IMG/VR virus record: IMGVR_UViG_3300042870_001850
Coordinates: 19,312 to 83,311 of that record
Length of the DNA stretch: 64,000 nt
Reading direction: 5' to 3' (one strand)
Source: a virus
Of the stretch, positions 31,398 to 33,462 are shown one piece after another. The position numbers and the translations under genes were made by a program. Each line of letters opens with the position of its first letter. The first letter of the stretch is position 1. Under the pieces are notes generated by a model. It saw nothing but the letters and a program-made list of their open reading frames with translations, had not been told where the DNA came from and did no database searches.

Positions 31398-32009
31398 ATG
31401 CACGACGACTACAAATTAGAAGCAGCAGATCCAGCTAACATTGTGATCATCGAAAACTTTATTTCTGCTGAACATCTTGATGCTATTTATGACTATTGCT
31501 ACAGCATCACTGAATGGGAATCTCAGTCTATTGCGCAAACTGATAAAATCAGCACGGGCGCAACGATGAAGAAGAATTCGCCAGAAGTCTATGACATAAT
31601 GTCGTCATACCTAAATAAAGTGCAAAAGGCTGTTGAATATAAGTTCGGCAGAAAGCTAGAGCCAAGTGTGCCAGGTATTCGTCGCTGGGATGCTGGAGAA
31701 CGCCAAGGGCCGCATGCTGATGGAGAAACAGTGCACGGCGTCGCCACAGACACATATATTGTCGACTACGGTTCAATAATGTATATAAATGACAACTACG
31801 ACGGTGGAGAGCTTTACTTTCCAGCATATGGAATTGACTTTCAACCTAAAGCTGGAACACTTGCATTTTTTCCGTCAAGTACGTACTACGTCCACGGCGT
31901 AAAAGAAGTGATTGCTGGCGTACGATACACTTCACCGCACTTTTGGGTCCCAACAAAACATAAACGACTAATTGAAATGACAAAAAATGAACAACAATCA
32001 GTCCATTAG
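31398..32009 (+). CDS. Prolyl-4-hydroxylase-like 2OG-Fe(II) oxygenase
   Basis: PHAD...YINDNYDGGELYF...YVHGV...RY. Confidence 0.88.
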   Translation: MHDDYKLEAADPANIVIIENFISAEHLDAIYDYCYSITEWESQSIAQTDKISTGATMKKNSPEVYDIMSSYLNKVQKAVEYKFGRKLEPSVPGIRRWDAGERQGPHADGETVHGVATDTYIVDYGSIMYINDNYDGGELYFPAYGIDFQPKAGTLAFFPSSTYYVHGVKEVIAGVRYTSPHFWVPTKHKRLIEMTKNEQQSVH

Positions 32010-33462
32010 ACCTATATACAATCTTCACATTCCTAGAACATCTGGCACTAATACGCTGTTTGCTCTGCAGCGAGAAATCGCGCGCATGCCAGAAGCTAAT
32101 AAGAACAAACTAAATAAGCATAAAGAACCAGAGTACGCGGATCTTAATATGTATACTCCAGACGTCTTAGAGTTCATCTATGACCACGACAAGATGAAGA
32201 ATTATAACTACATCTCAGGACATTTTGCCACAAATCCAATACACGAAATCGACAACTTACTTACGTTTTCTATAGTGAGAAATCCAGTAGATCAGTTTGT
32301 AAGCACTATTGCGTACAGATGCATGACCGCGCGAGTGCCGTTTACTTCACACGAACTGGACCTGTACATAGATGGCATGTACAAAATATGGGGAGAATTT
32401 GAAGGATTCTCTGGCATTGACAATCCGCAATCGCACTTTCTTTCACAAAAACTTGCCGCGTTCGAGCTAGAAAAAAGCAATAGGGGAAACGGAAGCTTAA
32501 AAGGAATGGCATTTGTAGGCTCACCGCAAAGTCTTGCCGACGTTCGTCAATTTACAGATGACATGATCATTAGCACACTTGAGAATCGGCACATTACAAT
32601 CGATAAAATAAATGTGGTACTGCAAAAACAATTCGGTATCACTATAGAAAACGATACAAGAAAAGTCAATAGCATTATGAAGCTTCGTTTTGAGATCTCT
32701 AAAGATCAAATGAAAAAGATGAAAGCCAAACTAGAACTTGACGAAGAAGTGTACCAGCACGTGAAACAGCAAGAGAAAAACGTGCCAAGTAGAATAAATA
32801 AAGCTAAAAAAGAGCCTCAACAAAAAGTCCAGTTGGCGCCACAAAAAGAGTCAATAGCGCAGATGTTTGGCACAGATTCTTCTATGATACGCGTCATTGA
32901 CAATTTTATTCCTAGCAACGATATCGAGAAGATCGTGGAAATGGCTTCTAAAATAACTGAATGGCGCCACGAAGAGCCTGGAACAGAGTGGCATGTACGG
33001 TTGTCGGATGCTGATAGCCTAGTTAAATTAAATTCAGATACTTACGGTATTCTTGAAACGTACGCAAGGGCAGCCAAGAATTGCGCAGAAGAACTGTTTA
33101 ACTGCACTCTTAAGTTTAGAAAACCAGCGCTCGTAAGATGTATAGCAGGAATGCACCAACCGGAGCTGCACACTAACAAACAAAATCTAGACGGCTATCT
33201 TAAAGAAGGAATTGGCGACGGCGATCTGTCAGCTGTCATGTATCTCAATGACGACTTTGAAGGCGGCGAGCTCGTGTTCCCGCAGCACGATGTGCGCGTA
33301 ACACCCACAGCGGGGCGTATTGTAATCTATCCTGGGGACAACGCGTACCTCCACTACGTCGATCAGGTCACTGCCGGTGTTCGCTGGGCGTGTCCGCTAT
33401 TCTTTTCAGTAGACGAAGAAGCATGTCAACACACAAAAGAACAAGAGAAAAAAGATGTCTAG
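31987..33462 (+). CDS. Sulfotransferase fused to a P4H-like 2OG-oxygenase domain
   Basis: LHIPRTSGT (5'-PSB), SGHF, VRNPVDQFVS (3'-PB); C-domain LHTN...YLNDDFEGGELVF...YLH...RW. Confidence 0.82.
   Translation: MNNNQSIRPIYNLHIPRTSGTNTLFALQREIARMPEANKNKLNKHKEPEYADLNMYTPDVLEFIYDHDKMKNYNYISGHFATNPIHEIDNLLTFSIVRNPVDQFVSTIAYRCMTARVPFTSHELDLYIDGMYKIWGEFEGFSGIDNPQSHFLSQKLAAFELEKSNRGNGSLKGMAFVGSPQSLADVRQFTDDMIISTLENRHITIDKINVVLQKQFGITIENDTRKVNSIMKLRFEISKDQMKKMKAKLELDEEVYQHVKQQEKNVPSRINKAKKEPQQKVQLAPQKESIAQMFGTDSSMIRVIDNFIPSNDIEKIVEMASKITEWRHEEPGTEWHVRLSDADSLVKLNSDTYGILETYARAAKNCAEELFNCTLKFRKPALVRCIAGMHQPELHTNKQNLDGYLKEGIGDGDLSAVMYLNDDFEGGELVFPQHDVRVTPTAGRIVIYPGDNAYLHYVDQVTAGVRWACPLFFSVDEEACQHTKEQEKKDV

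Follow-up and report, generated by a model that had tools for sequence, protein, structure and literature searches.

Results

A viral sulfotransferase is fused to a 2OG-oxygenase domain with Asn at the iron-binding Asp

We analyzed a 64,000-nucleotide stretch of viral DNA (the window), positions 19,312 to 83,311 of IMG/VR record IMGVR_UViG_3300042870_001850, and found a gene in which a putative sulfotransferase is fused to a degenerate relative of the 2-oxoglutarate (2OG)-dependent Fe(II) oxygenases. The Asn that occupies the place of the iron-binding Asp in this second domain is fixed in, and specific to, the fused lineage. Our best reading, which we hold tentatively and at a little less than even confidence, is that the protein is an active sulfotransferase tethered to a non-catalytic, still-constrained docking domain of the prolyl-4-hydroxylase (P4H) type. 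Both domains belong to known superfamilies; the combination is new.

The fusion gene is a single uninterrupted open reading frame (ORF) of 491 codons, read from the window at 31987..33462 (+), and its 491-residue product consists of a sulfotransferase domain, a linker, a degenerate P4H-like domain and a duplicated tail. The N-domain carries a 5'-phosphosulfate-binding-type motif (HIPRTSGT, residues 14–21; 32026..32049, +), a candidate catalytic base, His79, within an ISGHF motif (32221..32223, +), and a 3'-phosphate-binding-type motif (RNPVDQFVS, residues 98–106; 32278..32304, +). It ends in the original sulfotransferase C-terminal tail (residues 252–265, DEEVYQHVKQQEK...), which forms the first copy of a direct DNA repeat (32740..32780, +). 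A Lys/Gln/Pro-rich linker follows (residues 266–292; 32782..32862, +), then the P4H-like 2OG-oxygenase domain of the double-stranded β-helix (DSBH) family (residues 293–475; 32863..33411, +), and finally a second sulfotransferase tail (residues 476–491, DEEACQHTKEQEKKDV, then stop), the other copy of the repeat (33412..33452, +). A preliminary description made from the DNA letters had listed this ORF, the two N-terminal motifs and an HTN in the C-domain; we found all of them as described, the codons giving H395-T396-N397.

The fusion is not an artefact of one assembly. Both domain junctions, from sulfotransferase through linker to 2OG domain, were matched without differences by contigs from other runs (X18 record 10 and X20 record 17), and an identical or near-identical ORF occurs in the related viral locus L001 and in 15 members of its protein cluster. 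The Asn codon (33175–33177) was likewise unchanged in contigs from two other runs (X15 record 5 and X22 record 21). A sequencing or assembly error was thus ruled out. Megablast of positions 26000–40000 against GenBank phages gave no match, tblastn of the fusion protein against the same phages gave partial C-domain matches with coverage of at most 34%, and a scan of metagenome contigs returned no close relative, the best identity being 53% over a short piece.

The C-domain descends from P4H-like oxygenases and has lost metal ligands

The C-domain matched PF13640 (2OG-FeII_Oxy_3) at residues 405–473 with 38.2 bits against a cut-off of 27, or 40.5 bits when searched alone, and it also matched phrog_61 (2OG-Fe(II) oxygenase). 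A profile of 50 C-domain relatives (A4) found the P4H of Bacillus anthracis at E = 6.9e-17 as well as P3H1, the catalytic domain of human C-P4H alpha-2 and the P4Hs of PBCV-1 and Chlamydomonas. The YxNDDxEGGE...FP and H...R/K motifs are present in the domain. Judged from its sequence, the C-domain is a 2OG-oxygenase (PF13640) member by descent that stands outside the catalytic definition of the family.

This is because the HxD/E...H facial triad is degenerate. The ancestral H-A-D reads H395-T396-N397 in the window (33169..33177, +; codons CAC ACT AAC) and R-A-N in a sister lineage. The distal His456 (33352..33354, +) is retained, as is Arg466 (33382..33384, +), at the place of the Arg or Lys that follows the distal His in this family and binds the C5 carboxylate of 2OG. 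Residues C385-I386 (33139..33144, +) occupy the place of a Tyr-Arg pair found in the five closest intact relatives, and both changes adjoin the metal site. The column of C385 holds Tyr or Trp in 637 of 880 aligned 2OG domains, with Trp-Arg in the second domain of the window's own double-2OG protein; Arg is invariant at the site of I386 in the seven nearest intact relatives.

We wondered whether the Asn is conserved among homologues. At 90% identity, the fusion protein forms a cluster of 15 members, which we aligned together with the window (16 rows). N397, His456 and Arg466 were invariant in all 16 rows, and His456 was invariant in alignment A4 too. The proximal His, on the contrary, was replaced by Arg (P-R-A-N) in seven of the 15 members (P0011, P0015, P0016, P0018, P0019, P0020 and P0024); the other members read L-H-T-N or P-H-T-N, the H-T-N...H form being found in the window and seven members. 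The R-A-N form is the commoner variant, with 51 of 68 contig sightings. Its member P0011 is represented by 41 contigs, the longest of 148,648 bp. No DNA of its lineage was recovered when viral contigs were scanned with P0011, which returned only L001. One R-A-N protein, P0024, has 238 residues and a different, Asn-rich N-terminus of 17 residues without a sulfotransferase part; it comes from one 1.7-kb ENA contig and may be a real stand-alone form or an assembly or gene-calling artefact.

Every nearest non-fused relative has H-A-D. These are the stand-alone 2OG protein P0080 (202 residues, 76% identical to the C-domain) and the second domains of the double-2OG proteins P0002–P0007 (60–75% over the core, 74% for P0002). 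The second domain of the window's own double-2OG paralogue (36230..37615, +) also has H-A-D at the aligned site and is 50% identical to the fusion C-domain over the core, which bears out the parallel, HTN against HAD, drawn in the preliminary description. All ten of the other 2OG domains that were read in the window's array have HxD. We then took the 880 2OG domain hits (524 distinct) that the window and all fetched loci had yielded and aligned them with hmmalign to a hidden Markov model of the window's own paralogues. H-D/E-H-R/K was found in 482 of the 488 distinct domains that were gap-free at the four key columns, and the column of R466 held Arg or Lys in all gap-free rows. Two of the six exceptions were the fusion (window and L001). 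The other four apparent losses (one in L093, two in L095, one in L112) were rejected as alignment slips: three of these domains carry HTD and one H-x-E. Thus, within this sample, loss of the carboxylate is unique to the fusion.

Contigs of 24 runs, belonging to 24 coded studies, contained the stretch (0.42–1.00 of its sampled words); 21 of the runs are 2024 lake-water metagenomes, possibly from one campaign, and four may be the source of the record. Low-depth fragments from the four runs with an intermediate share of words were identical to the window except for a C>T at 32316 in X22; stretches of the gene left uncovered in these runs carry no information. As the Asn is present in all orthologues and in contigs of other runs while the non-fused homologues all have Asp or Glu, it is neither a private mutation nor a sequencing error. 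The association between Asn and fusion is perfect, yet a single evolutionary event underlies it.

The N-domain is very probably an active sulfotransferase

A Pfam search with residues 1–290 returned no family at E ≤ 10, and the window protein, as a member of the family alignment, likewise gave none at E ≤ 0.1, so that the identity of the N-domain rests on family profiles and fold. With residues 1–272 as query, phmmer found 44 relatives (E ≤ 0.001) among 1.84 billion cluster representatives. These representatives, taken at 50% identity, are 59–320 residues long; none is fused and nearly all lack annotation. In an alignment of 45 family members (A3), 30 matched PF03567 (Sulfotransfer_2) at E ≤ 0.1, the best at 1.2e-8. 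A profile of A3 found heparan-sulfate (HS) 6-O-sulfotransferase (HS6ST) in the PDB at E = 5.9e-10 and HS 2-O-sulfotransferase (HS2OST) at 0.02. The two motifs for binding 3'-phosphoadenosine 5'-phosphosulfate (PAPS), a G-H dipeptide and a C-terminal helix were collinear between A3 and these enzymes: HIPRTSGT aligned with HIQKTGGT of HS6ST, and RNPVDQFVS with RDPVSRYLS of HS6ST and RDPIERLVS of HS2OST.

The predicted fold points the same way. An AlphaFold2 model of the N-domain built on A3 reached a mean pLDDT of 90.5 and a pTM of 0.89. Foldseek returned three matches at E ≤ 0.001, all of them HS6ST chains (top hits at E = 4.8e-5). In VIA-align, the model superposed on HS2OST (3f5f) with a Z of 15.1 over 221 residues (root-mean-square deviation 3.5) and on HS6ST with a Z of 13.5; the next rows were other sulfotransferases at Z ≤ 8.7, with tyrosylprotein sulfotransferases at 6.9–7.3. 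The neighbours of the domain in the ESM Atlas were Sulfotransfer_2 clusters as well, many of them viral.

Column conservation was counted over 61 distinct homologues from viral contigs. H14, T18 and G20 of the first motif and R98, P100 and S106 of the second were conserved in all 61. The column of R17, which is Lys in HS6ST and HS2OST, was basic throughout (Arg in 43, Lys in 18). H79 was conserved in 60 of 61; its counterpart in the alignment with chicken HS2OST is the second His of the HGH motif, which we take to be residue 142. In HS2ST, His142 is the putative base and the H142A variant keeps less than 1% of the activity, as given in an excerpt of PMC6094399. In view of the profiles, the modelled fold and the conserved columns, the N-domain very probably represents an active enzyme from a divergent and mostly viral sulfotransferase branch akin to PF03567. 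The sulfotransferase assignment made in the preliminary description is therefore upheld by family profiles, fold and the conservation of the PAPS-motif and catalytic-His columns, although no direct Pfam match backs it; since the window protein falls below detection by PF03567, we file it as a divergent relative and not as a member by the curated threshold.

The oxygenase cassette sits inside the tail of the sulfotransferase gene

In a survey of 81 sources (80 related viral loci and the window), we counted 108 sulfotransferase ORFs, and only those of the window and L001 also contained a 2OG domain. A stand-alone sulfotransferase was present in 79 of the 81 sources. Two copies were found in 27 sources (loci L019–L043, L079 and L085), where in most cases the paralogues are neighbours that share a few bases; in the window there is one copy, the fused one.

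The stand-alone sulfotransferases P0025–P0030 have ~267 residues and are 66–79% identical to the N-domain, with many others at lower identity. The stand-alone proteins close with ...LELDEEVYQHVKEREKKDV and a stop codon. The fusion carries this tail twice, before the linker (residues 252–265) and after the 2OG domain (residues 476–491). The corresponding DNA segments, 32740–32780 and 33412–33452, are 76% identical over 41 nt, spaced by 672 nt and in frame. The tail is absent from the intact 2OG relatives P0002–P0007 and P0080, which end shortly after FFTV. The linker (..NKAKKEPQQ..IAQMFG) partly resembles the N-terminus of P0080 (KAKKEP...AQMFG; ..DKAKKEPVAQMFG). Read from these sequences, a complete 2OG cassette sits inside the 3' tail of a sulfotransferase gene. 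It may have come in by an insertion that duplicated the tail, or a deletion may have joined it to the final codons of another sulfotransferase paralogue located downstream.

The second domains of the double-2OG proteins are of two types: a short type A (P0002–P0006), the source of the fusion domain, and a longer type B with an inserted CG..VY..G..W segment (P0007 and the window's 36230–37615). It is the five type-A relatives that carry the Tyr-Arg pair mentioned above, and the cassette is of this type. In a maximum-likelihood tree the fusion domains formed one clade (100/99) within the type-A group (99/97); together with the alignment, this placement confirms that the C-domain derives from the second domain of double-2OG proteins. 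Because the window's own double-2OG gene is of type B, the phage has type A only in the fused form, which we read as dead. The stem of the fusion clade measured 0.21 changes per site, versus 0.02–0.10 in four sisters; P0006 also reached 0.21.

The C-domain is apparently still constrained as a fold

The fusion lineage kept 70 of the 75 columns (93%) that are invariant in the seven nearest intact relatives. The five deep columns that changed are M317V, N327H/R, R386I, D397N and T474S. Relative to the 120 columns invariant in the five type-A relatives, 21 were changed, including Y385C, W412G/C, D452N and H460Q. Changes on the stem spared the deeply invariant columns (5 of 75 versus 16 of 45; Fisher p = 1e-4). 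In the crown, after the change of Asp to Asn, no such sparing was seen: 7 of 75 formerly invariant columns varied versus 8 of 108 other columns (p = 0.79). The formerly invariant columns that vary within the fusion clade include H395R, G/D341 and A/T396.

Within the cluster, the N-domain varied at 28 of 265 positions (10.6%), the linker at 7 of 27, the C-domain at 15 of 183 (8.2%) and the tail at 4 of 16, which makes the linker the most variable part. The C-domain was no more variable than the N-domain (p = 0.42) and three times less variable than linker and tail combined (11 of 43; p = 0.003). No stop or frameshift was seen in the 15 members. The window and L001 differ by two synonymous and three non-synonymous codons, too few for a ratio of non-synonymous to synonymous rates. 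We read these patterns as a fold that is apparently still selected while its old catalytic constraints have relaxed, an argument made from small numbers, that is, from amino-acid counts in 15 close sequences without synonymous rates.

The fusion lies in a conserved locus with a (PPxF)n protein and an oxygenase array

The record is an 83-kb phage fragment, estimated to be 62% complete, that encodes PolA, a primase-helicase, RNR and tail-fibre proteins. The fusion is its only sulfotransferase homologue, so the job of this family would be done here by the fused form. Directly upstream lie tail-fibre-like genes and a gene for a 448-residue fn3 protein (30024..31370, +) that ends in 14 PPxF units, ten of them PPYF; we consider this protein the candidate substrate. 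A 203-residue 2OG oxygenase with HAD (31398..32009, +) stands between this gene and the fusion, and a 207-residue 2OG oxygenase with HADKQ (33455..34078, +) starts within the end of the fusion ORF. The order is thus fn3-(PPxF), 203-residue 2OG oxygenase, fusion, and then about ten more 2OG genes, among them the double-2OG paralogue. In all, at least 12 intact 2OG domains adjoin the fusion in this phage.

This arrangement is conserved. A (PPxF)n ORF lies upstream of the sulfotransferase on the same strand in 69 of the 81 surveyed sources, at a distance of 586–1594 bp in 66 of the 69, and 58 of the 69 have one 2OG ORF in between. Seven of the 12 sources without a PPxF ORF have less than 1200 bases of upstream sequence. 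At least one 2OG ORF was present in the locus in all 81 sources. In most relatives only two units are PPYF (two Tyr) among 10–13 mostly PPFF units, and the longest run of L085 and L086 has no Tyr. The most divergent PPFF loci are L083 (8704–9993), L085 (8595–10013) and L086 (8529–10013), in which the repeat is internal and is followed by a Cys (..F-C-I-D..) and ~170–240 residues, the sulfotransferase starting 0–2 bp past the stop. The segment after the repeat could be a self-cleaving domain that leaves a C-terminal PPFF tail; Pfam reported fn3 but no Hint or intein-like domain after the repeats of L083 and L085.

No glycosyltransferase was named by Pfam in the array ORFs that were scanned, and 40846..41580 received no family. 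A DUF6065 gene (39050–39751, +) lies inside the array and a glutathione-peroxidase-like gene (44902–45522, +) at its end. Further along is a gene for a WhiB-family transcription factor (45638–46171, −; PF02467, E = 1.7e-16). Such genes are characteristic of actinobacteriophages, which makes a freshwater actinobacterium, as opposed to a cyanobacterium, a possible host of this lake-water phage.

A possible PAPS-supply gene encodes 251 residues at 16777..17535 (−), with the N-terminal half of a P-loop domain of the adenosine-5'-phosphosulfate (APS) kinase type and a cytidylyltransferase-like HxGH region. It matched PF01583 at 57.6 bits (cut-off 21.1), over profile positions 4–91 of 152 only, and the NCBIfam model apsK at 52.2 bits, below the cut-off of 138.7. 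This gives a weak hint that the phage may supply PAPS or another nucleotide-sulfate; the product may equally be an unrelated kinase. Genes for a serine recombinase (Resolvase and Recombinase domains) and a PhyH-type dioxygenase lie near it, at 16101–16784 (+) and 17737–18489 (−).

Discussion

A proposed docking domain on a sulfotransferase

The results are consistent with a mechanism in which a PAPS-dependent enzyme of the Sulfotransfer_2 fold, similar to the HS 2-O- and 6-O-sulfotransferases, would be joined by a flexible linker of ~27 residues to a P4H-like domain. This domain, taken from the phage's own P4H-like family and spliced into the 3' tail of the sulfotransferase gene, would no longer be an Fe(II)/2OG oxygenase and would be kept under selection as a fold. 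As a docking module, it may recognise the substrate of its catalytic cousins, the (PPxF)n tail of the upstream fn3 virion protein, unmodified or hydroxylated. Docking would hold the sulfotransferase on the repetitive tail and lead to O-sulfation of hydroxyls, either of hydroxyproline made by the neighbouring oxygenases or of Tyr. The fusion, the families of its domains, the fixed Asn, the lost His of the sister lineage, the origin and overall conservation of the module and the conserved neighbourhood are observed, whereas we infer the inactivity of the domain, its binding to the tail, the identity of the acceptor and the use of PAPS as donor. The docking idea draws on the fact that P4H-type domains bind polyproline-type peptides by design, and a sequence of hydroxylation then sulfation would follow from the PPFF unit, which has no hydroxyl until it is hydroxylated. 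There is also a precedent: the C-terminal DSBH of OGFOD1/Tpa1p has no metal site and is proposed to bind substrates or partners, according to excerpts of PMC4396695.

A more specific version of this mechanism, suggested by synteny, is that the C-domain is a reader that targets the sulfotransferase to hydroxylated PPYF. It would read the aromatic polyproline tail, perhaps hydroxylated or sulfated, with Arg395 or Asn397 filling the iron site; the sulfotransferase would act processively along the 14 PPxF units, and the phage would build a hydroxyproline- or tyrosine-O-sulfated, extensin-like polyanionic tail on a virion fibre protein. We regard this fuller scheme as doubtful. A complex prediction for the C-domain (A4) with the 74-residue PPYF tail scored 0.00 and was run without controls; it speaks neither for nor against binding.

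Several points weigh against a non-catalytic docking domain. The distal His and the 2OG-binding Arg are retained, as expected if cofactor binding still mattered. The selection argument is drawn from amino-acid counts in 15 close sequences, part of the stem may predate the change of Asp to Asn, and crown substitutions on formerly invariant columns fit decay as well as re-tasking. The R-A-N domain of P0024 has no sulfotransferase, so tethering may not be obligatory, and the characterised Sulfotransfer_2 relatives act on glycans, not on peptides. AspH works with two His, single-His variants keep substantial activity, and excerpts of PMC10947486 caution against reading inactivity from motifs. As 2OG oxygenases with two or even one protein ligand to the iron can be active, the C-domain need not be inactive.

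Alternative explanations

The main rival is that the C-domain is an active oxygenase with an atypical metal site, made of two His and a weak or absent Asn ligand in the HTN form and of a single His in the RAN form, which would make the protein a bifunctional hydroxylase-sulfotransferase that hydroxylates a tail residue and sulfates it straight away. Fusion of consecutive pathway enzymes is common, H456 and R466 are invariant and 70 of 75 deep columns are kept, all of which fit such an enzyme. Its metal site is harder to accept: the commoner variant does without the proximal His, Y385C and R386I arose concurrently, and loss of the carboxylate was tolerated in none of ~480 related domains. The Asp414-to-Asn form of human collagen P4H was reportedly inactive in work of Myllyharju and Kivirikko in 1997. 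The phage, moreover, already has its intact 2OG domains next door. Among known enzymes, excerpts of PMC10947486 describe AspH as using two His, with active H679A and H725A variants, and AspHD1 as having Arg at the proximal His; they also state that Gly occupies the carboxylate position in AspH and in the active FIH variant whereas FIH with Ala or Glu is inactive, and here the residue is Asn. On balance we find an active C-domain unlikely. The preliminary description had left the choice between a dead reader and altered chemistry. We favour the dead form because of the sister R-A-N lineage, Y385C and R386I, and crown changes that do not spare columns invariant in intact relatives; halogenase-like chemistry fits poorly, as halogenases have Ala or Gly at this place and not Asn.

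The C-domain could also be a functionless passenger: a recombination accident after which the oxygenase died and slowly decays, the sulfotransferase working as in the 79 sources with a stand-alone relative. The junction looks like illegitimate recombination and only a single shallow lineage has the fusion (2 of 81 sources; none of the 44 family representatives exceeds 320 residues). The long stem, exceeded by none of the sisters and equalled by P0006, and the crown substitutions on formerly invariant columns would suit decay. A passenger, however, should not remain as little variable as the N-domain and three times less variable than linker and tail, nor keep 93% of its deeply conserved columns. 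It is open and full-length in all members, in 68 contig sightings and in the contigs of 24 runs, and phage genomes usually lose useless DNA fast. We judge this account about as improbable as an active oxygenase. A different objection concerns the acceptor, which could be a glycan or small molecule such as a host envelope polysaccharide or a virion sugar, the dead domain binding some other ligand or a further protein encoded in the array. Glycosaminoglycan sulfotransferases are indeed the nearest relatives with solved structures, tyrosylprotein sulfotransferases score much lower (Z of 6.9–7.3), and Tyr is scarce in the tails of most relatives. The tight order of (PPxF)n gene, 2OG gene and sulfotransferase argues for the tail instead, as do the lack of a glycosyltransferase named by Pfam in the scanned array ORFs and the natural order, oxygenases and then sulfotransferase, that PPFF would impose if hydroxylation provides its first hydroxyl. 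An acceptor other than the tail therefore seems to us distinctly unlikely.

Significance

The fusion itself is narrow, and its function is deduced from the comparisons above. It shows, in nature, a 2OG domain shedding its iron ligands one after the other (Asp to Asn, then His to Arg) while the rest of the fold is conserved. With intact relatives of 74–76% identity as controls, it provides a clean setting for the question of why a 2OG pseudoenzyme is retained, and for that of whether loss of the motif means loss of activity, the caution raised in the AspH literature. More broadly, a phage sulfotransferase family is tied to a conserved set comprising a (PPxF)n virion protein, an array of P4H-like oxygenases and the sulfotransferase. 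This set suggests hydroxylation followed by sulfation as the order of reactions in virion modification and gives a handle on an undescribed virion-modification module. In open-access full text we found no paper linking phage, sulfotransferase and prolyl hydroxylase, none on a phage with a PPYF repeat, and none on phage 2OG-Fe oxygenases acting on tail fibres or on phage sulfotransferases with PAPS. Should the reader scheme hold, it would amount to a post-translational modification pathway without a described counterpart in phages, and no earlier 2OG-oxygenase pseudoenzyme would have been shown to target an enzyme of another class to its substrate.

Comparison with known systems

The N-domain resembles the HS 2-O- and 6-O-sulfotransferases (PF03567; PDB 3f5f, 4ndz and 5t03) in its predicted fold and in the collinear 5'-phosphosulfate-binding motif, catalytic GH, 3'-phosphate-binding motif and C-terminal N-S...LD..LY helix. 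It differs from them in its low identity (12–17%), in having Arg for the motif Lys (Lys in 18 of 61 relatives), and in being a viral, soluble domain of ~265 residues without a glycan context. TPST1/2 use Arg in the 5'-phosphosulfate-binding motif. These enzymes (PDB 5wri, 3ap3 and 8w5z) share the sulfotransferase fold and act on peptide Tyr, but their structural match is weaker (Z of 6.9–7.3 versus 15.1) and no sequence-level match to them was seen.

By the A4 profile the C-domain is like the single-domain P4Hs of B. anthracis (3itq/5hv0, 6.9e-17), PBCV-1 (5c5t, 1e-9) and Chlamydomonas (2jig, 1.2e-6). Unlike them, it has Asn for the carboxylate of HxD, Arg for the proximal His in the sister lineage, and a sulfotransferase partner; prokaryotic prolyl hydroxylases are mostly single-domain, as stated in an excerpt of the OGFOD1/Tpa1p paper (PMC4396695). 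AspH and AspHD1 are likewise without a carboxylate ligand, and at the proximal His position AspHD1 carries Arg, like the R-A-N form; AspH, in contrast, carries Gly where the fusion has Asn and is an active enzyme of another subfamily (excerpts of PMC10947486). Replacement of the triad carboxylate is shared with the 2OG halogenases (SyrB2, WelO5 and BesD type), which, by the same excerpts, use Ala or Gly and so make room for the halide (PMC10947486). Asn is polar and bulkier, and the commoner variant has given up the proximal His that halogenases require; a halogenase would read HxA/G...H with both His kept, whereas the fusion has Asn and 7 of 15 members lack the proximal His.

The closest functional analogue of the C-domain would be the metal-free C-terminal DSBH domain of OGFOD1/Tpa1p/Ofd1, which is likewise a prolyl-hydroxylase-related DSBH without a metal site in a two-domain protein (excerpts of PMC4396695). 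The fusion does not belong to that type, as its metal site is degenerate but its partner domain is not a DSBH; a similar way of working is possible. In OGFOD1-type proteins the partner is an active DSBH hydroxylase and the pair is ancient and eukaryotic, with 12% identity between the domains, according to the same excerpts (PMC4396695). In the phage protein, by contrast, the partner is a sulfotransferase, the event is recent (74–76% identity to intact relatives), and the decay of the triad has been caught in two steps.

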